Shown: positions 8,585-63,912 of the stretch, piece after piece
Numbering within the stretch: the first letter of the stretch is position 1
Layout of the letters: the number at the start of each line of letters is the position of its first letter
Assembly (NCBI GenBank): GCA_964425075.1
Contig: CAYRKM010000002.1
Location: 162,898-226,897 of the forward strand
From: an uncultured Gammaproteobacteria bacterium
Lineage (GTDB): Bacteria; Patescibacteriota; Microgenomatia; Levybacterales; GWA1-39-11
Reading direction: 5' to 3'
Length of the DNA: 64,000 nucleotides
The notes under the pieces: model-generated
The model's input: the letters and a program-made list of their open reading frames with translations, nothing else
Database searches by the model: none
What the model was told of the DNA's origin: nothing
Made by a program: the position numbers and the translations under genes

Positions 8585-9808
8585 ATGTCAATTGTGCCCA
8601 AAACATTAAAAGGTTTTCGTGATTTTTTACCTGAAAAGGCTTCCAAGCGCGAATATGTAAGAAAAATTTTAAAAGAAACTTTTGTGTCATTTGGATTTGA
8701 ACCACTCGAAACTCCAAGTCTTGAATACGAGGAAGTTCTGCTTGGTAAATATGGAGAAGAAGGCGATAAATTAATGTACCGGTTTATGGATAATGGGGGT
8801 AGAAAAGTCGCGTTACGCTATGATCAAACAGTACCTCTTGCACGCGTTGTGGCACAATTTCAAAATGATATTCCACTACCCTTTAAAAGACATCAAATGC
8901 AAAATGTTTGGAGAGCTGAAAATACACAAAGAGGAAGATTTAGAGAATTTTTGCAGTGTGATATCGATACAGTTGGTGCATCATCCGCATTAACTGATGC
9001 TGAAATTATTGCGTGTGCCTATGAAGCTTATATTGCTTTGGGGTTTGATGATATAACATTTCTTGTAAATGACCGACTAATTTTTAATGAAGTTACTAAA
9101 GGCACCATAACATCAATAGATAAATTGAAAAAAATAGGTAGAGAGCGGGTTGTTGAAGAATTAGTTTCACGCGGTGAATACGACTCCTCTGAAACAGCTG
9201 AAAAGGTTCTGATAAAAATTGAACAATCAGAACCAACGCCTTGGATAAATGACGTCATAGAAACTGCAAAGAAATTAGGAGTCCCAGAACGAGCTATTCA
9301 ATTTTCTCCAACTCTTGCTCGAGGACTGGACTACTACACTTCTACTATTATTGAAGCAGTTACCCCATCTTATGAGGTTGGTTCATTGGGTGGAGGAGGA
9401 AGGTATGACAAACTTATTGGACTATTTTCAAATAAAGCGCTTCCTGCAGTTGGCTTTGCGTTTGGTTTTGATAGAGTAATTGAAGCAATGGAAGACCTTG
9501 GCCTTTTTCCTGAAGAATTAACACATGTAAAAGCGCTCGTTACCGTTTTTTCAGAAGAAACAAAAGACGCCTCACTTAAAGCAGTAAGAATTTTGCGACT
9601 TGGTAATATTTCTACAGATATTTATCTTGACGAAAATTACAAAATGGAGAAACAAATAAAATATGCCATAAAAAAACAAATTCCCTATATTGTAATAATC
9701 GGACCCGAAGAAAAGGCAAAAGGTGTTGCTGCTGTTAAAAATTTAAAAAGCGGACTTCAAACAACTATTCTCTTAGAGAATCTTACGGACGCAATTGAGG
9801 AAAACTAA
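8585..9808 (+). CDS. hisS: histidyl-tRNA synthetase
   Basis: Class II motifs LKGFRDFLP, YRFMDNGGRKVALRYDQTVPLAR, RFREFLQCDID; C-terminal anticodon-binding domain IVIIGPEEKAKGVAAVKNLKSG. Confidence 0.93.
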   Translation: MSIVPKTLKGFRDFLPEKASKREYVRKILKETFVSFGFEPLETPSLEYEEVLLGKYGEEGDKLMYRFMDNGGRKVALRYDQTVPLARVVAQFQNDIPLPFKRHQMQNVWRAENTQRGRFREFLQCDIDTVGASSALTDAEIIACAYEAYIALGFDDITFLVNDRLIFNEVTKGTITSIDKLKKIGRERVVEELVSRGEYDSSETAEKVLIKIEQSEPTPWINDVIETAKKLGVPERAIQFSPTLARGLDYYTSTIIEAVTPSYEVGSLGGGGRYDKLIGLFSNKALPAVGFAFGFDRVIEAMEDLGLFPEELTHVKALVTVFSEETKDASLKAVRILRLGNISTDIYLDENYKMEKQIKYAIKKQIPYIVIIGPEEKAKGVAAVKNLKSGLQTTILLENLTDAIEEN

Positions 9809-9862
9809 AATCTTAATACCCTCTGGATTTTAAATAAGAAACCTGCGTAGAATTAATATTGG

Positions 9863-10768
9863 ATGAAAAATACGCAAAAGGCCGTTTTTGCACTAATTCT
9901 TGCAAATTTTATTTGGGGAGCAGCTGCACCCATATTTAAGTGGTCGCTTGAAAGCACACCACCCTTCACGCTTGCCGTGCTTCGATTTGGAATTGCTTCA
10001 CTTATTTTTCTTCCTTTGGCCAAGAGACATTCCTTTTCAATAAAAAGCAAACATATTCTACTTCTTATCATTATGTCTTTTTTGGGAGTTTCACTTCATA
10101 TAAGCTTTTTCTTCTTGGGACTTGGATATACAGATAGTATCAATGCACCAATTATTGCCTCGTCAGGCCCCTTATTTATTATTCTTTTTGGTTTCTTATT
10201 TCTTAAGGACAAGATAAAAAAAAGAACAATGATTGGAGCATTTATTGGGCTTTTGGGAGTACTTGCTATCATTGTGCTTCCCGCTGTGGAGAAAGGTTTG
10301 GATGGATCTATAGTTGGAAACGTTTTTTTTGTAATAGCTATGCTTGCGGGAGTTATATACGCATTACTTTTAAAAAAACTCATGAATGGATATCATCCTT
10401 TTACTATAGCTTTTTGGACTTTCTTAATAGGAACAATAGGATTTCTTCCAATGTTTTTTGATGAAATTCAAAGAGTTGGTTTTTTGCCCATAATTAATAC
10501 TCAAGTTATTGTTGGGATTCTTTTTGGCGCCCTTCTATCTTCCTCTCTTGCATATGCACTACAAATGTGGGCGCTTCAAAAGATGTCCGTTGAGGATGTT
10601 GGTTTGTTTGCCTACGTTGACCCTGTTATTGCGGTTCTAATTGCCGCGCCGCTTTTGGGCGAACAACCAACATCTGTTTTCTTTGCTGGCTCCTTCTTTG
10701 TGTTTTTTGGAATTTATATTGCCGAAGGAAGAATACATTGGCACCCCATTCACAGACTCTTCAAATAA
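9863..10768 (+). CDS. EamA/DMT-family transporter (10 TM)
   Basis: Two EamA repeats, hydrophobic throughout. Confidence 0.8.
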
Positions 10769-53277: not shown

Positions 53278-53646
53278 ATGAGAATTCAAAACTTCACAGA
53301 CTTAGAAGTATGGAAAAAAGGGCATGAATTGTTTATTCAAATTTATACTGTCACAAAACATTTTCCGAACAGTGAACTTTTCGGATTCACTTCACAATTA
53401 AGGAGAGCCTCTTTGTCTATCACGTCTAATATTGCTGAAGGTTTTGGAAGAAGCTCAAGAAAAGAGAAGGTGCAATTCTATTATATTGCACATGGTTCTC
53501 TACTCGAACTCCAAAACCAGATACTTGCCGCTAAAGATGTCACTCTTATTAAAGAGGAGGAATTTGAACAATTATGGGAACTGACAATTACCGTACAAAA
53601 GTTAATCAATGGCCTCATCCGGAGCATAAAAAACTCATATTCCTAA
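53278..53646 (+). CDS. four-helix-bundle protein (23S rRNA intervening-sequence protein family, TIGR02436)
   Basis: FTDLEVWKKGHELFIQIY...SQLRRASLSITSNIAEGFGR...YIAHGSLLEL. Confidence 0.85.
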   Translation: MRIQNFTDLEVWKKGHELFIQIYTVTKHFPNSELFGFTSQLRRASLSITSNIAEGFGRSSRKEKVQFYYIAHGSLLELQNQILAAKDVTLIKEEEFEQLWELTITVQKLINGLIRSIKNSYS

Positions 53647-53722: not shown

Positions 53723-54559
53723 ATGGGACAAAGAAGACGTGGCGGATTTATGTTTTTTAATATTACCTCCTCAGGTAATATGTTCGTTATTACTTTTGTT
53801 TCTTTAGTTGTCATATCAAGCCTACTTCTTGCTCGTGGTTTCTTCCCCAAATCTACTCTAACTGATCCAAAGGATAACACTCAATACGAGCTTGATGATC
53901 AGGAACAAACAGATTCTGCAACGGGTCTTCAGCTTAGAACGCTAAAGCTTAAAGAGTGCAAAAATGCTGTTGCTGTTGATATGCTTTTGGACCGATCAGC
54001 TTCAATGCAAGAACAAAACAAAATGACAAAACTAAAAGAAGCAGCAAATGGATTTACCTCAAATCTAAGCGATAACTCACTTATTGGAATACAATCATTT
54101 AGCTCCACTGGAATTAGTAATGATGTACCCATATCGCTCTATGCAAGCGTCAAACCCCTAGTTGGAAGTGCAATTAACGGCCTTAGACCCTCAGGTGCTA
54201 CACCTACAAAAGACGCCCTCGAATTCACACAAAAAATACTTGCAGATGCTGTCCAAAAATATCCCGGAAAAAATTTTGTATTAATTTTTGTCTCAGATGG
54301 AGCCCCTTGTCCAGGAATCGGATGCCCCGAAGCACCAGGAGCTAACCAGGACCCGGCCCTTTACACACCAAACCCAGCAAGTGAAATAAAAAGTCTTGGG
54401 GTTACAATTTATACAATTGCAATAGGTTCCGACCCACTTAATAGCGTAATGAGCGGTATTGCATCAAGCCCTGACACGATGTTTAGCGCCCCCACAGGAG
54501 CCGAACTTAAGGGAATATATGATAAGATTGCAACACGGCTTTGCAACAAAGTAAACTAA
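53723..54559 (+). CDS. von Willebrand factor A domain protein, N-terminally membrane-anchored
   Basis: MIDAS DRSASM, ...SDGAP... Confidence 0.78.
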   Translation: MGQRRRGGFMFFNITSSGNMFVITFVSLVVISSLLLARGFFPKSTLTDPKDNTQYELDDQEQTDSATGLQLRTLKLKECKNAVAVDMLLDRSASMQEQNKMTKLKEAANGFTSNLSDNSLIGIQSFSSTGISNDVPISLYASVKPLVGSAINGLRPSGATPTKDALEFTQKILADAVQKYPGKNFVLIFVSDGAPCPGIGCPEAPGANQDPALYTPNPASEIKSLGVTIYTIAIGSDPLNSVMSGIASSPDTMFSAPTGAELKGIYDKIATRLCNKVN

Positions 54560-58553: not shown

Positions 58554-58582
58554 TTGACTCGAAGCGTAAATTTTTCTAGTAT
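58554..58582 (+). promoter_or_regulatory. promoter TTGACT-N17-TAGTAT upstream of the first dockerin gene
   Basis: cccCTTGACTcgaagcgtaaatttttcTAGTAT. Confidence 0.35.
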
Positions 58583-58597
58583 GGATATATACCGTTT

Positions 58598-59809
58598 GTG
58601 CGGCTATTGTTAATGGATTCGATTAAGAAGCTTTATTCAACTCTATTTCAGCATTCTTTAAAAAGAACTATATATGTCATAGGTGGTCTTATCGTCGCCC
58701 TTTCCCTTCCTATTACTATTATCCTCACTCAACAACAGCAAGATCTTCGACAAAGAGCTACTTTTAATAACTATCCTTATACTGGCGGAGAAGGCGGAAT
58801 CACGGATAGGAGCTGTTTGTGGCAATCAGAAAGAGCAAATAGTTGTTCCTGCACTTCAAACAGCCAATGTTTAAGCAAAAATTGCACATTTAACAAATGC
58901 CAACCAAATCCTACAGCAACCCTAACACCTACGACTCCCCCTTCATCAACATTAACACCAACACCTACACGCACACCTACAAACAGCCCTAGCCCAACTG
59001 GAACAGCAAGTTGTAGTTCTTTCACCAACAAACCTGCTTCATGTACTTGTTATCTTGATTATCAATGTGCGTCAGGCAAATGTAATAAAACCAGTACTTA
59101 TTCAGGAACTTGTTCTGGACCAAGCATATCTCCCTCTCCCTCACCGTCTACGAGTTGTGGACTAACTAATCGCTCAGCAGGATGTGCTTGTGAGCAATCC
59201 ACACAATGCCAATCTGGGTTAACCTGCACCAACAATTCCTGTAGTGGTGCAAATCCTCTATCCCCAACACCCACGAATGGAGCAAATGAAACAAGAATAC
59301 TTTTGTCAGTATCCCTTCCTGGAATAAGCAACAGAACTGGAAGTGCTGCAGCTTCACCCAAAAGAATTGCTCGAGAAACCAAAGTAGAAATCTACAACTC
59401 CTCTAACCAGAAGGTAAGTGACAAAACCGGAAATCTTATCTATGACACAGCCTCAAAATTATACAAAGGCACAATAAGCTTAGGAGATGGATTTACGACT
59501 GGACAATATATTGTAAAAGTAAGAATGGATAATTCATTGTGGAGAAGAGTTCCGGGGATTGTTACAATTACTGCAAATACTGATAATAATCCAACACAAC
59601 AAATTCAACTTGTTACAGGTGACCTTGACCAAAACAACAGCTTAACAGTCATTGACTATACAAATTTCGTAAAGTGCTTTAAGGATGAATCAACCTGTAC
59701 TAGCGCGATGAAGATTCTAGCTGATTTGGATGATGATGGAACTGCCAAAGACGATTTGGATGACTTAACTATTTTACAAAAAGGATTTGCAGTAAGAGAC
59801 GGAGATTAG
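58598..59809 (+). CDS. secreted/anchored Cys-rich protein with C-terminal dockerin-like module (cassette 1, large subunit)
   Basis: TM helix, then QQQQDLRQRA; three CxCx(4-5)QCxSGxC knots; TP/SP linkers; about 100-aa beta domain; C-terminus GDLDQNNSLTVIDYTNFVKCF...DLDDDGTAKDDLDDLTILQKGF (two EF-hand/dockerin Ca-loops). The track start is GTG; ATG at 58613. Confidence 0.6.
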   Translation: MRLLLMDSIKKLYSTLFQHSLKRTIYVIGGLIVALSLPITIILTQQQQDLRQRATFNNYPYTGGEGGITDRSCLWQSERANSCSCTSNSQCLSKNCTFNKCQPNPTATLTPTTPPSSTLTPTPTRTPTNSPSPTGTASCSSFTNKPASCTCYLDYQCASGKCNKTSTYSGTCSGPSISPSPSPSTSCGLTNRSAGCACEQSTQCQSGLTCTNNSCSGANPLSPTPTNGANETRILLSVSLPGISNRTGSAAASPKRIARETKVEIYNSSNQKVSDKTGNLIYDTASKLYKGTISLGDGFTTGQYIVKVRMDNSLWRRVPGIVTITANTDNNPTQQIQLVTGDLDQNNSLTVIDYTNFVKCFKDESTCTSAMKILADLDDDGTAKDDLDDLTILQKGFAVRDGD

Positions 59810-59884
59810 ACAAGAAACTATTATGGTTATAATAGAGAGATTGACAAGAAAAATAATATACTTAATACTTAATTCCTAACTTTT

Positions 59885-60523
59885 ATGAACCTGCCTAGAA
59901 AAACAACAATACTTATAATCATACTCGCGGTTGTTACAGCCCTCTTGATATTTCTTGCCGTAACTAGTGAAACTACTCAGCAGATGCTAATTACCGATGA
60001 GCCACAACCCACTATCCCCACAGAAACAGTTGTTGAACCCTACGCTACTTTTAGCTTTTCCTCCCCTATTATTGATATAGTAAACACTCCAAGCGCAACC
60101 CAGTCGGTAGATATTGTGCTTGATACTGCAGGAAAGGGAGTTTTTGGAGCTCAAGTTGAGCTTCAATACGACCCTGCTCTTTTATTTAATGTGTCAATTA
60201 AACAACCCGCTCAGAACGCTCTGTTTGGAAATAATACTTCAGTGCTAATTAATGAAGTAAATTCCTCCCAGGGAAGAATTTCGTATGCAATAGCACTTAA
60301 CCCAAATGAAGATGAAAAAATTGGACGAGGTACAATTGCAACACTTACCTTTACGCCAAATAGGAACAGTACTACTCCAAGTACAACCGTTTCATTTCTA
60401 CCAAAGTCAGCTGTAACAACGATTGCGGGCAGCGGATCCGTTTTGAAAAACTCTACCCCACTCACAGTTATACTATCTACTCCTATTTCTCCAACGCCCA
60501 CACTGCAGCCCCCAGGTTTGTAA
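59885..60523 (+). CDS. membrane-anchored cohesin-like domain protein (cassette 1, small subunit)
   Basis: N-terminal TM; SVDIVLDTAGKGVFGAQVELQYDPALLFNVSIK...GRGTIATLTFTPN matches the cohesin beta-sandwich pattern (x-L-x-YDP-x-L). Confidence 0.6.
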   Translation: MNLPRKTTILIIILAVVTALLIFLAVTSETTQQMLITDEPQPTIPTETVVEPYATFSFSSPIIDIVNTPSATQSVDIVLDTAGKGVFGAQVELQYDPALLFNVSIKQPAQNALFGNNTSVLINEVNSSQGRISYAIALNPNEDEKIGRGTIATLTFTPNRNSTTPSTTVSFLPKSAVTTIAGSGSVLKNSTPLTVILSTPISPTPTLQPPGL

Positions 60524-60538
60524 CTTGTTTGTTGACAT

Positions 60539-62467
60539 TTGTGCTCATTTAAACCTAATATTAGAGAAAGGTTTAATTCTCTAATGAAGAAATTATTAAG
60601 AAAAATTCATCGTTATTTCTCTAAATCCAGTCTCCGGGTTATTTCTCTTCTTGGCATTACTTTTGCACTGGTTGTAACAGCTACTCTTGCCCAACAGCAA
60701 CAAGATATACGACAACGCGCAGCAGGGGATCCTGGCGGCACAGGAGATACTAAAATAAACGGCTATTACGGAAACTCAAATAATCCCGCTGTATGTTCAC
60801 CAGAAAATGGAACATCACGTACATTTGTTCACCGTTATGCCGGGTCAACCTTCGGACCCAAACTTTTTGAATGCCCATTTCAGTCAGCATGCAAACAAAT
60901 AGACGCAGATACAATTCAATGCGCAGCAACCTACGGGACAGATATAAAGTGCGGCAATTCAGTTTGTGATGCCAGCAAGCAAACTTGTGTTCTAAATCAT
61001 TTTGATAATTCGGCGGTCTGCGTTACAAAAGGAAGCGGACCGGATGGCGCTGACTGTGATAACCCCAATGGAACTCCAAATTCTGAAGTATGCAAATCCG
61101 GTATGTGTGGGGCTGATTTGAAATGTGCTTCTTCTGCAGTGGTCACTCCATCACCTAGCTCGGGCGGTTCTAGTAGCTGTATACCAACAGGCACTGTTCC
61201 TTGTGGAAATGCTTGCCAATATTGTGATGCCGGTTGGACTTGCGGGACAGACAAACAGTGTTATCCTCCAAACACAGGCGGCAGCACAGGAGGAACAGCT
61301 ATATGTACCGGTAGTGATTTTGCCTGCAATGGAAAATGTTACAGCTGTTCAAATGGAGGAAAATGCACTAATAATAATGCTTTCTGTAATTGCCCTACGG
61401 GTTTTGTGGATGGTGGTAGTAATGTCTGTTGTCCAACAAATGCTCCTAAATATTGTTCTGATGGATATTGCAGGGCAGATTGTAACCCGCCTACAACCAC
61501 TCCTGACCCTCGACCTTCTACTTTTACACTCACAACCCCCAATATGGACTGCAACAGCGCTTATCTTTCATGGGGAACTTCCACAGGCGCAACTAGTTAC
61601 TCAATAGAAACCTATATAGACCCTTCCCAAGCACCAATTGCCTCACTTTCAAAAAGCAATTTACCGCTAAACCCAACGACTTATAAGGTGACAGGCCTTG
61701 CTCCAAGCACTATTTATTATTTCGGGATTGTTGCAAATGGAACAGGAACACTAAAAAGAACGCTTGTTGTAAATGGTATAACAACTGCAACTTGTCCGAC
61801 AGCAGGTGGAGGAACCACGTCTACCGCAAAAAAAACACCTACAGCCTCAACTAGTAACACTGTCACCACACCGGTTCCACCCAAAACCGCTTCTCCTACA
61901 ATTACTACCACTATTACATCCTCTCCTGCGATAACGGGTTCTAATTCCACCGCAAATATTTCCCTTATCCTCACTCTCCCTGGCATTGGTTCGTCTTCAG
62001 ACAGCAAGAATTCCAATCCAGCAAGAAGTACAAGAACCGTTAATGTTGGATTAGTAAATTCAAATGGCGCAATTACTTCGTCCCAAGGGGATGTGAGTTT
62101 TGATAGTTCTTCAAATTCTTTTAAAGGAACTGTCAATGTGCCAAATCTAGCTTCCGGTACGTACACTGTAAAGGTACGGCTTGATAATACATTGTGGAAA
62201 AATCTCAGCAGCTCTATAACAATTGTAAGCGGTTCAAATAACCCAACAACAAGCACTGTACGGTTGGTTTCAGGTGACCTTGACCAAAACAATAGCCTAA
62301 CTATTGCTGATTACACAAATTTTGTAAAATGTTATAAGTCCCTTGCAACATGCACTGATACACTTCATACATTGTCTGACCTTGATGACGATGGGGTTGT
62401 AAAAGACGACTTGGATGATTTAACAATTTTGCAACAAGGATTTAATACACAACAACAGGGAGACTAA
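60539..62467 (+). CDS. secreted/anchored Cys-rich, FN3-containing protein with C-terminal dockerin-like module (cassette 2, large subunit)
   Basis: TM helix, then QQQQDIRQRAAG; EGF-like Cys-rich region; FN3-like YLSWGTSTGATSYSIETY...YYFGIVANG; TA/TP linker; C-terminus GDLDQNNSLTIADYTNFVKCY...DLDDDGVVKDDLDDLTILQQGF. Confidence 0.6.
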   Translation: MCSFKPNIRERFNSLMKKLLRKIHRYFSKSSLRVISLLGITFALVVTATLAQQQQDIRQRAAGDPGGTGDTKINGYYGNSNNPAVCSPENGTSRTFVHRYAGSTFGPKLFECPFQSACKQIDADTIQCAATYGTDIKCGNSVCDASKQTCVLNHFDNSAVCVTKGSGPDGADCDNPNGTPNSEVCKSGMCGADLKCASSAVVTPSPSSGGSSSCIPTGTVPCGNACQYCDAGWTCGTDKQCYPPNTGGSTGGTAICTGSDFACNGKCYSCSNGGKCTNNNAFCNCPTGFVDGGSNVCCPTNAPKYCSDGYCRADCNPPTTTPDPRPSTFTLTTPNMDCNSAYLSWGTSTGATSYSIETYIDPSQAPIASLSKSNLPLNPTTYKVTGLAPSTIYYFGIVANGTGTLKRTLVVNGITTATCPTAGGGTTSTAKKTPTASTSNTVTTPVPPKTASPTITTTITSSPAITGSNSTANISLILTLPGIGSSSDSKNSNPARSTRTVNVGLVNSNGAITSSQGDVSFDSSSNSFKGTVNVPNLASGTYTVKVRLDNTLWKNLSSSITIVSGSNNPTTSTVRLVSGDLDQNNSLTIADYTNFVKCYKSLATCTDTLHTLSDLDDDGVVKDDLDDLTILQQGFNTQQQGD

Positions 62468-62469
62468 AA

Positions 62470-62504
62470 TAGTTAGTAGTTTGTAGAAGGTAGTTGGTAG
62501 AAAG
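62470..62504. repeat. TAG-rich repeat upstream of the second cohesin gene
   Basis: tagttagtagtttgtagaaggtagttggtagaaag. Confidence 0.45.
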
Positions 62505-62519
62505 AAATATGAACAAAAT

Positions 62520-63086
62520 ATGAATCAAAGAAAAATATTATTTCCAGCAATTATTATCGTTTTGGCCTTAATAACAGTGGCTCTTATAATCTCTGCTGTT
62601 ACTACGCCTACTAAGAATAAGGCAGGTCTCAATCCCACACCTGCTACAAAACCTTATGCCTCTCTTTCATTTTCACCTGAAAAACTTTCCCCTACAGATA
62701 CAGCTTCACAAACCGCAGACATTGTAATTGACACTAATGGTAAAGGTGTTTTTGGTGCGCAAATTGAACTTCAGTATGACCCCAACATTATTTCCAATCT
62801 CACCATAGATTTGCCTGAGAACTCTTTTTTTGGTAAAAGTAGTACTGAGCTTATAAAGCATGTCTCTCAAGAAGAAGGGCGCGCAACTTTTGCAGTTGGA
62901 GTTGGGCCAAATGACGAAGAAAAAAAAGGACGAGGAACAATTGCAACTATAAAGTTTCAAATAAACCCCTCCTCTGAGAATAAAACTGAGATTACCATTC
63001 TACCGATTTCCTCAATAAATAACTTGGTAGATGAGGGCTCAGTCTTGCTTAATTCAACCACCCTACCAATAACATTTGCTCGCTAG
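62520..63086 (+). CDS. membrane-anchored cohesin-like domain protein (cassette 2, small subunit)
   Basis: N-terminal TM; TADIVIDTNGKGVFGAQIELQYDPNIISNLTID...GRGTIATIKFQIN; paralog of 59885..60523. Confidence 0.6.
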   Translation: MNQRKILFPAIIIVLALITVALIISAVTTPTKNKAGLNPTPATKPYASLSFSPEKLSPTDTASQTADIVIDTNGKGVFGAQIELQYDPNIISNLTIDLPENSFFGKSSTELIKHVSQEEGRATFAVGVGPNDEEKKGRGTIATIKFQINPSSENKTEITILPISSINNLVDEGSVLLNSTTLPITFAR

Positions 63087-63089
63087 CTA

Positions 63090-63476
63090 TTGATTTTTTC
63101 ATCATTCCTCGCTCATAATGATTACATGGCTGACCTACCTTCTTCTTCCTTCCAAGGACCACTTGCTCCCAAAATGGGCCTAGGTGATTCCTTTAAGAGT
63201 CCACTCCATGAAAATCAACAGAACTCACCGCCTCCAAAATCCAGTGGAAGAAATCTGGGACGACTCATACCATATGGGGCAATTGCTGTAGCGCTTCTCG
63301 TCCTTCCTTTAACCATAAGTCAATTAAATCAGCAGCAAGATATACGACAACGGGCATCAGAGCCTATTCCAACTATTATTCTTCCTACGGAAACCCCACC
63401 AAGTACTCCTTCACCTACTGAAGAGGTTGCAAGCCCCTCAGCCACACCTGAGGAGCCAGCAGCAGATATTTTTTAG
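63090..63476 (+). CDS. short paralog carrying only the TM plus QQQDIRQRA N-terminal module and a TP-rich tail (possible truncated family member)
   Basis: LIPYGAIAVALLVLPLTISQLNQQQDIRQRASEP then PTETPPSTPSPTEE; TTG start in the track, internal ATG available. Confidence 0.4.
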   Translation: MIFSSFLAHNDYMADLPSSSFQGPLAPKMGLGDSFKSPLHENQQNSPPPKSSGRNLGRLIPYGAIAVALLVLPLTISQLNQQQDIRQRASEPIPTIILPTETPPSTPSPTEEVASPSATPEEPAADIF

Positions 63477-63838: not shown

Positions 63839-63912
63839 GGCGCGGTGGCGAAGTGGTAACGCGGGGGTCTGCAAAACCTCTATGCGAGGGTTCGATTCCC
63901 TTCCGCGCCTCA
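63839..63912 (+). tRNA. tRNA-Cys (anticodon GCA)
   Basis: Hand-folded cloverleaf: acceptor GGCGCGG/CCGCGCC; D-arm GCGA-AGTGGTAA-CGC; anticodon stem GGGGT/ACCTC with loop CTGCAAA; T-arm GAGGG-TTCGATT-CCCTT; discriminator U73 typical of tRNA-Cys; CCA not encoded. Confidence 0.85.

Follow-up and report, generated by a model that had tools for sequence, protein, structure and literature searches.

How bacteria of the candidate phyla radiation (CPR, Patescibacteria) build their envelope and attach to their hosts is, to our knowledge, largely unknown. A locus on contig CAYRKM010000002.1 (assembly GCA_964425075.1) raises the question whether such a bacterium holds proteins at its surface by means of cohesin and dockerin modules, independently of any cellulosome. 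It occupies positions 58,554 to 63,476 of a 64,000-nucleotide stretch (the window), where five open reading frames (ORFs) on the same strand are followed downstream by a gene for tRNA-Cys(GCA). The ORF list and ARAGORN place these five ORFs and the tRNA gene where an earlier, sequence-only reading had put them; that reading had proposed two consecutive units, each with a large Cys-rich protein ending in a dockerin-like module and a small membrane-anchored cohesin-like protein. We refer to the genes and their products as large1, small1, large2 and small2, in that order, and to the fifth product as the 116-aa protein. Our analysis indicates that the locus probably constitutes a cellulosome-independent cohesin-dockerin system anchoring surface proteins in a Candidatus Levybacteria-like bacterium, present in two diverged tandem copies.

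The two units are true tandem paralogues. The C-terminal 171 aa of large1 and large2 are 47% identical (BLASTP, E=3e-48) and their N-terminal transmembrane (TM) regions align too, and small1 and small2 share 42% identity across 184 aa (E=1e-44). Similarity of the large pair as well as of the small pair shows that the tandem duplication is real. Coordinates of all features are collected in the table below.

The small proteins and the C-termini of the large proteins

Both small proteins exceed the Pfam gathering score of 24.1 bits for Cohesin (PF00963), with 31.0 bits for small1 and 26.1 bits for small2, and small2 was in addition matched by the lineage hidden Markov model (HMM) at E=1.8e-61. 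The AlphaFold model of small1, computed from a 34-sequence alignment, reached a predicted local distance difference test score (pLDDT) of 91.6 and consists of one N-terminal helix (residues 5-33), a low-confidence linker of ~20 residues and a beta-sandwich (residues 54-196). Foldseek comparison of this model with the PDB returned cohesins for all of the top 50 matches, the best being 6kgc_A (E=3.7e-8, template modelling (TM) score 0.75), with target TM scores up to 0.76; the model thus superposes on the nine-stranded beta-sandwich (jelly-roll) of solved cohesins. The closest folds were type I cohesins from C. acetobutylicum and C. cellulolyticum, and the lower-ranked matches included the type II cohesin 2b59_A (rank 23, TM score 0.59) and the type III cohesin 2zf9_B (TM score 0.51). 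Type II cohesins are distinguished by an extra alpha-helix and by beta-flaps interrupting the strands; the small1 model has no helix within the cohesin residues 54-196 and hence represents a compact, type I-like cohesin. In the Foldseek alignments, small1 was 12-19% identical in sequence to cohesins already characterised. Homologues of the small cohesin fall into 101 clusters, most of them with a precomputed PF00963 assignment. These data support the earlier proposal that small1 and small2 are N-terminally membrane-anchored cohesins, the membrane topology being that predicted from the N-terminal helix.

The C-termini of the large proteins were analysed in the same manner. For the last 175 aa of large1, the AlphaFold model (pLDDT 91.4, predicted TM score 0.85) shows a beta domain followed by three helices, with the strands within residues 4-96 and the helices at 123-133, 141-147 and 159-169 (construct numbering). 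Only eight PDB structures matched this model with E<1e-3 in Foldseek, and all eight are type II X-module-dockerin (X-Doc) dyads of CipA/ScaA, among them 4u3s_B, 4wi0_B, 5g5d_B, 2b59_B, 3kcp_A and 4fl4; the alignments cover about 170 columns (169-185) versus the 175 aa of the construct. A phmmer search of PDB sequences with the last 176 aa of large1 found the X-module/type II dockerin of C. thermocellum CipA (2B59_B, E=8.5e-4), in an alignment that begins at the end of the X-module and takes in both Ca loops. Furthermore, we took X-Doc orthologues from genomic loci (20-sequence alignment, A3), protein searches having given one sequence with the X-Doc fragment as query and 28, all of at most 300 aa, with the 20-sequence alignment. 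The profile of these 20 orthologous C-termini matches solved dockerins and X-Docs (2yik_A, 2b59_B, 4wi0_B, 1ohz_B, 1daq_A and further structures) with E between 1e-7 and 1e-5, and the Pfam family Dockerin_1 is matched by 12 of the 20, at best with E=1.3e-7. The dockerin assignment of the sequence-only reading is thereby sustained by the family profile (E~1e-7) and by significant PDB folds that are X-Docs only, although the window's two C-termini themselves fall below the Pfam threshold. Its beta-rich domain of ~100 aa is also present, and since all the significant folds are X-Doc dyads, Foldseek, phmmer and the family profile refine it to an X-module. The C-terminal 175 residues of the large proteins are thus a type II-like X-Doc dyad, which in the large1 model is packed as one unit.

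Ca loop 1 (DLDQNNSLTVID), which reads D-L-D-Q-N-N-S-L-T-(V/I)-(I/A)-D across the window pair, is canonical, and in both large proteins it fits the D1/D3/N5/T9/D12 pattern exactly, as had been noticed before. Both Ca loops are of the EF-hand-like kind, and a helix follows each. A Cys pair behind helix 1, possibly forming a disulfide, is nearly invariant within the family, and the C-terminal G-F-x-x-R-x-G-D is invariant. Between the two window dockerins, identity is 74% across a 57-residue core and 69% across the C-terminal 66 residues, compared with 47% for the whole X-Docs, and no orthologue dockerin exceeds 54% identity to them. Recent gene conversion was considered as the cause of this likeness and rejected, for the DNA of large1 and large2 across the loop 1 region is only 81% identical over 72 nt, with many silent differences. 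Low DNA identity together with silent changes means that the likeness is kept by selection on the protein, and the two dockerins appear to be held alike by purifying selection, as expected if the two plugs are both required to fit the cohesins of one cell. Judged from the sequences, either cargo protein may be able to use either cohesin of this genome.

The remainder of the large proteins is rich in Cys. In large1 the 6-Cys pattern C-x9-C-x-C-x5-C-x4-5-C-x4-9-C occurs in three copies; a pattern scan counted 20 Cys in large1 and 34 in large2, the latter also having a long PT/ST stalk. The several Cys-rich modules and TP/SP linkers described earlier were recovered in the form of the three 6-Cys modules of large1, but the label 'EGF-like' found no support, as searches of Pfam, NCBIfam and PDB sequences gave nothing significant for the Cys-rich N-terminal regions. 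Cargo differs among species and includes 6-Cys modules, FN3 and PKD. Neither Pfam nor NCBIfam identified a catalytic domain, a carbohydrate-binding module (CBM) or an SLH domain in the five proteins of the region, and no LPXTG motif was seen on reading them. Furthermore, these five include no dockerin-bearing carbohydrate-active enzyme (CAZyme) and no multi-cohesin CBM scaffoldin, the hallmarks by which a cellulosome would be recognised.

Conservation of the gene pair in related genomes

The genome scan with a closer alignment of 14 cohesin sequences showed that the TM-cohesin is encoded at 20 species-representative genome loci, and the meaningful names among these genomes are Candidatus Levybacteria/Levyibacteriota or 'Patescibacteria group'. 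At 18 of the 20 loci the TM-cohesin gene is immediately preceded by a gene for a full X-Doc, so that the synteny check suggested for related genomes came out in favour of a conserved pair. The same adjacency was found on a 353-kb metagenome contig, and one locus (L025) carries an independent tandem duplication. In the two exceptions (L015 and L016), the upstream gene encodes a TM-cohesin protein with a single-loop dockerin end. The conserved order is the gene for serine hydroxymethyltransferase (SHMT), variable genes, an X-Doc protein bearing the N-terminal signal described below, a TM-cohesin (~200 aa), either a small membrane protein or a PpiD-like foldase, and tRNA-Cys.

At these two exceptional loci (L015:6292-7866 and 9187-9957; L016:6327-7928 and 9122-9892), a dockerin is apparently split. 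One protein has the X-module and the first Ca loop only, and the other, with a TM segment and a cohesin, has the second loop only, together with R-N-G-D. Single-loop ends are also frequent on short proteins (P0113, P0116, P0119, P0120).

From the identity of the domains and the conserved adjacency of their genes, we infer that the TM-cohesin and the X-Doc are likely binding partners. It could be argued instead that the two have cohesin-like and dockerin-like folds without interacting, the small protein being a membrane-anchored beta-sandwich that binds carbohydrate or another ligand and the dockerin a Ca2+-stabilised end-cap. The identity of only 12-19% to characterised cohesins can be put forward for this, and non-cellulosomal cohesin and dockerin modules with unidentified partners are reportedly common; but without a shared function it is difficult to account for the strict gene adjacency across the related genomes, for duplication of the pair in two lineages and for purifying selection on the dockerins, and we consider this alternative highly improbable.

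Adjacency might also reflect co-regulation only, with the TM-cohesin binding other dockerins (e.g. of the DxxDFNxWRDxF type) and the X-Doc binding another cohesin. Such candidates exist among the relatives, where a second dockerin type is encoded immediately upstream of the X-Doc gene and further cohesins are found inside the large protein of L003 (27.7 bits) and in a divergent TM-cohesin upstream of SHMT. However, the 64-kb window contains neither a second-type dockerin nor other cohesins (lineage HMMs find two cohesins and two dockerins only), and yet the pair was duplicated as a unit. Moreover, the X-Doc/TM-cohesin adjacency is constant across loci, whereas the second dockerin type and the internal cohesin are present at some loci and missing from others, and known X-Doc dyads bind cell-anchored cohesins (PMC5141474). 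Co-regulation only is therefore a quite improbable explanation in our view.

The additional modules of the relatives were recorded as follows. The second dockerin-like type consists of two D-x-x-DFNxWRDxF repeats at the end of Cys-rich proteins whose genes immediately precede the X-Doc gene (L003:4944-5822, L007:6702-7814, L015:7866-9170, L024:6784-8091 and others); Pfam is blind to it, and it does not occur in the window. At L003:5803-7896, and also at L007 and L008, the X-Doc protein has its own cohesin (Pfam 27.7 bits), PKD and an FN3-like domain, a composition which makes it a true mini-scaffoldin and suggests a three-tier assembly, the window having the simple two-tier form. In many relatives a second pair, consisting of a protein with 41-52 Cys and then a divergent cohesin-like protein of ~220 aa (Pfam Cohesin 24.7 bits in L003), is located upstream of SHMT (L003:58-1853, L008:1467-3871, L020:2135-4557 and others); the window instead has a VWA-domain protein at 53723-54559.

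The N-terminal signal and the proposed mechanism of anchoring

Large1, large2 and the 116-aa protein have a common N-terminal signal, in which the TM helix closes with (L/I)P(I/V/L)T(I/L) and QQQD(I/L)RQRA comes next. In both large proteins and in many relatives F-x-(H/S)-S-x-K-R-T precedes the helix. The signal also occurs in the loci of relatives (L003-L025) and is absent from the TM-cohesins according to the motif scan. No Pfam or NCBIfam model matches it. With a 51-position profile (A7), we retrieved 1032 protein clusters at E<=1e-3 among 1.84 billion representatives, always with the signal at the N-terminus (residues ~5-55). The best 93 matches include 27 with a Pfam dockerin, and many of the others have SdrD_B, VWA, SpaA or FN3 domains of the adhesin type. 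The TM helix with QQQDIRQRA is a candidate new sorting signal. It is probably processed, since the combination of signal and C-terminal anchoring module in one protein argues for release and recapture.

The mechanism that we propose starts from the small protein, whose N-terminal helix would sit in the cytoplasmic membrane and hold the type I-like cohesin ~20-25 residues above it. The large protein would be exported via the lineage-specific signal (TM helix with LPxT(I/L), then QQQD(I/L)RQRA) and probably processed, after which its X-Doc, with two Ca2+ loops, would plug into the membrane-anchored cohesin. The PT/ST-rich stalks would then project the 6-Cys modules and FN3 outward as adhesin-like or structural surface elements without a catalytic domain.

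Several observations weigh against this mechanism. A type I-like cohesin would here receive a type II-like X-Doc, a pairing undocumented among the solved complexes retrieved; in place of a type II or type III cohesin on an SLH- or sortase-anchored scaffoldin, the candidate partner is type I-like and TM-anchored. The Pfam score of the last 68 aa of large1 for Dockerin_1 (PF00404) is 16.4 bits (E=0.011), below the gathering score of 22.9, and the C-terminus of large2 has no match. These values can be explained by Ca loop 2 (DLDDDGTA(KD)DLDD), which keeps D1/D3/D5/D12 and departs from that of the relatives by a 2-residue insertion. The distance matrices of cohesin and X-Doc are correlated with r=0.76 (mirror-tree, Mantel); a value of this size is expected from shared phylogeny alone, and we rejected it as a sign of interaction. 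In addition, the classical AxA signal-peptidase site is missing, with Q at -3 of RQRA, and the same signal is found on the PpiD-like foldase, which is expected to stay membrane-bound; both features argue for retention, and the large proteins may remain N-terminally anchored.

Retention would lead to a different architecture, with both partners anchored N-terminally and cohesin-X-Doc contacts formed either in cis, as a hoop-like tether, or in trans, as a surface lattice or in cell-cell cohesion. The hydrophobic segment of the large proteins, ~20 residues long and anchor-like, together with an RQRA lacking the AxA site and a signal shared with a PpiD/SurA-like foldase that is normally membrane-bound at work, is compatible with it, and the single chains of relatives that combine signal, cohesin and dockerin (P0113, P0116, P0119 and the 697-aa protein of L003) suit chains or lattices. 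A C-terminal anchoring module, however, would be redundant on a protein already held by its N-terminus, and the coupling of signal and C-terminal dockerin (27 of 93) resembles the cleaved signal and C-terminal anchor of Gram-positive proteins. The strong conservation of the signal likewise suggests that a dedicated processing or sorting factor recognises it. Double anchoring is thus unlikely in our judgement, and release of the large protein followed by capture through its X-Doc is the reading we prefer.

A wider proposal, which we put forward tentatively and with more doubt than belief, is that Levybacteria and possibly a wider range of Microgenomates use a sortase-independent surface sorting code. 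The signal would mark more than 1000 adhesin-type families for export and processing, and the X-Doc with its R-x-G-D end would plug non-covalently into single membrane cohesins; the further cohesins and the second dockerin type would give a multi-tier 'adhesosome' in some species. If true, the sorting code would be the apparatus that attaches ultra-small episymbionts to hosts or substrates. As the signal marks a large candidate set of surface proteins, it could also improve the annotation of CPR secretomes.

Known systems, neighbouring genes and gene layout

The locus forms a simple two-component module, in which the X-Doc:cohesin joint of cellulosomes would serve again, now combined with a membrane anchor and a Cys-rich/FN3 cargo that is not enzymatic. 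The genes of CttA and ScaE, one such cell-surface pair of R. flavefaciens, are reportedly adjacent in the sca cluster. In Ruminococcus and Clostridium, CttA and scaffoldins are fastened to the cell through X-Doc:cohesin pairs (PMC4266597, PMC5141474), and the joint is mechanically strong (PMC4266597). In mechanism, CttA X-Doc:ScaE and the CipA X-Doc:SdbA/ScaF system described below come closest to the arrangement proposed for the window. In the former, a non-enzymatic surface protein with N-terminal binding modules inserts a C-terminal X-Doc into a single-cohesin, cell-fixed protein and so connects the cell with a target (PMC4266597). In contrast, sortase (LPXTG) attaches ScaE covalently to the wall, and the ScaE cohesin is of type III; the small protein instead carries an N-terminal TM helix as its anchor, and its compact cohesin is type I-like (TM score 0.51 to ScaE 2zf9_B). 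CttA, moreover, has cellulose-binding modules, and the window proteins have 6-Cys knots and FN3, without a cellulosome.

The CipA-SdbA/ScaF system of C. thermocellum and the ScaA-ScaB system of Acetivibrio cellulolyticus provide the sole significant fold matches and the best sequence and profile matches of the X-Doc, and in them the X-Doc serves to fasten a secreted protein onto the envelope of the cell (PMC5141474). They differ by SLH anchors, by type II cohesins that have the additional helix and flaps, and by an enzyme-loaded multi-cohesin CBM scaffoldin, none of which is present here; conversely, the dockerin Cys pair and the invariant R-x-G-D end of the window family are not seen in clostridial X-Docs. 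Use outside plant cell-wall degradation is shared with the non-cellulosomal modules of Archaeoglobus fulgidus and of the Clostridium perfringens toxin complexes, and the C. perfringens cohesin-like modules 2jh2, 2w1n and 2vo8 are among the Foldseek matches of small1. Those modules are scattered in multidomain enzymes and hypothetical proteins, whereas the present genes form a dedicated two-gene, lineage-conserved unit with a membrane-anchored receptor. A functional analogy can also be drawn to Gram-positive sorting (YSIRK/GS, KxYKxGKxW and LPXTG/sortase), which likewise combines a family-wide N-terminal signal with a C-terminal anchor on adhesin-type cargo; there is no sequence relationship, and anchoring would here be non-covalent and to the membrane, not to peptidoglycan.

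What sets the locus apart from the closest known X-Doc:cohesin systems is the anchor formed by a TM helix, the type I-like cohesin, the lack of enzymes, CBMs and scaffoldin, the Cys pair with R-x-G-D, the undescribed signal and the CPR host. In the full text of the literature, we found no description of a cohesin/dockerin system in CPR, the related mentions being PMC10633639 and generic CAZyme counts. The former mentions in passing that a dockerin-domain protein is essential in Saccharibacteria, in the one genetically tractable CPR member (PMC10633639). Orthogonal cohesin-dockerin pairs are perhaps also useful as parts for protein assembly.

Downstream of the two units, the ORF at 63090-63476 had been taken for a third, truncated family member. 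It is instead a PpiD/SurA-like foldase gene in its short form, and its product has only the N-terminal signal in common with the large proteins. The first ~80 residues of the 116-aa protein share 23 invariant columns with orthologues, including proteins of 303-310 aa encoded at the same position in L019-L021. The L019 protein, with which those of L020 and L021 align, comprises SurA_N_3 and Rotamase_2 (Pfam). The region matching the chaperone and peptidyl-prolyl isomerase domains is missing from the window's form, and the head, the TM helix, the signal motif and the PT-rich tail remain in the window's clade. The tRNA-Cys gene, regarded earlier as a hotspot, is a conserved syntenic neighbour, located downstream of the cassette in all 18 of 18 related loci. 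A mobile element inserted at such a hotspot was ruled out by the housekeeping, lineage-syntenic surroundings (RecR, RRF, RseP, EF-Ts, S2 and SHMT).

The gene starts had to be revised, as public gene calls with identical products begin at ATG 58613, ATG 60584 and ATG 63126 and not at the first GTG/TTG of each ORF. An alternative start of large1 is possible at GTG 58598. For large2, the promoter-like site at 60532-60561 overlaps TTG 60539, which favours the start at 60584. Each gene had been credited with a promoter of its own, and TTGACx-N17/18 hexamers do precede large1, small1 and large2; small2, on the other hand, has a weaker match alone (62442-62470), and the 19 promoter-like sites across the region versus 13.0 +/- 3.7 in shuffles show no clear enrichment. 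Promoters of the cassette genes are thus plausible as judged from their hexamers.

Table. Features of the cassette in window coordinates; positions prefixed with a locus handle refer to the loci of relatives.
Feature	Position	Strand	Basis
Promoter-like TTGACT-17-TAGTAT, 5' of large1	58554..58582	+	consensus scan, 9/12 matches; weak evidence
large1, 398-aa surface protein: N-terminal signal, three 6-Cys modules with PT/SP linkers, X-module, dockerin	58613..59809	+	ORF and exact product in public gene calls
large1 signal: hydrophobic helix IYVIGGLIVALSLPITIILT, then QQQQDLRQRA	58670-58759	+	motif scan
large1 6-Cys modules, PT/SP-rich linkers between	58814-58900, 59012-59113, 59156-59242	+	pattern scan
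large1 X-module, Ig-like beta domain	59303..59599	+	lineage HMM, AlphaFold, Foldseek, phmmer
large1 dockerin: two Ca loops, three helices, conserved Cys pair, C-terminal GFAVRDGD	59603..59806	+	Pfam sub-threshold, family profile, model
Promoter-like TTGACA-17-AATACT, 5' of small1	59841..59869	+	consensus scan, 10/12 matches
small1, 212 aa: N-terminal TM helix, ~20-aa linker, cohesin (residues ~54-196, nt 60044-60472), short PT-rich tail	59885..60523	+	Pfam, AlphaFold, Foldseek
Promoter-like TTGACA-18-TAATAT, 5' of large2 ATG 60584	60532..60561	+	consensus scan
large2, 627-aa surface protein: signal, Cys-rich region, FN3-like domain, PT/ST-rich stalk, X-module, dockerin	60584..62467	+	ORF, public gene calls, lineage HMM
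large2 signal; QQQQDIRQRA at 60692-60721	60632-60721	+	motif scan
large2 Cys-rich region	60794-61795	+	pattern scan
large2 FN3-like domain	61541-61756	+	Pfam fn3 E=1.6e-4, below gathering score; weak PDB FN3 matches
large2 X-module	61961-62251	+	lineage HMM
large2 dockerin	62258-62464	+	lineage HMM
small2, 188-aa TM-anchored cohesin; domain ~62652-63074	62520..63086	+	Pfam, small1 similarity, lineage HMM
116-aa membrane protein: 65-aa cytoplasmic head, TM helix, QQQDIRQRA, PT-rich tail	63126..63476	+	orthologue alignment, public gene call
116-aa protein signal	63270-63359	+	motif scan
tRNA-Cys (GCA), conserved neighbour, outside the system	63839..63911	+	ARAGORN
Foldase-type proteins at the same position as the 116-aa protein	L019:10712-11644, L020:10706-11617, L021:10708-11634		Pfam (L019), alignment

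Two further observations concern the surroundings of the cassette and the records of the relatives. At 53278-53646, between the S2/EF-Ts operon and the VWA gene, the window encodes a 23S rRNA intervening-sequence protein (PF05635, E=7e-38). Moreover, the public MAG records of L006-L011, L013, L014, L017, L018, L020, L021 and L025 are titled 'uncultured Gammaproteobacteria bacterium', which clashes with the gene content and with the named relatives; these titles are probably placeholder or wrong taxonomy labels.

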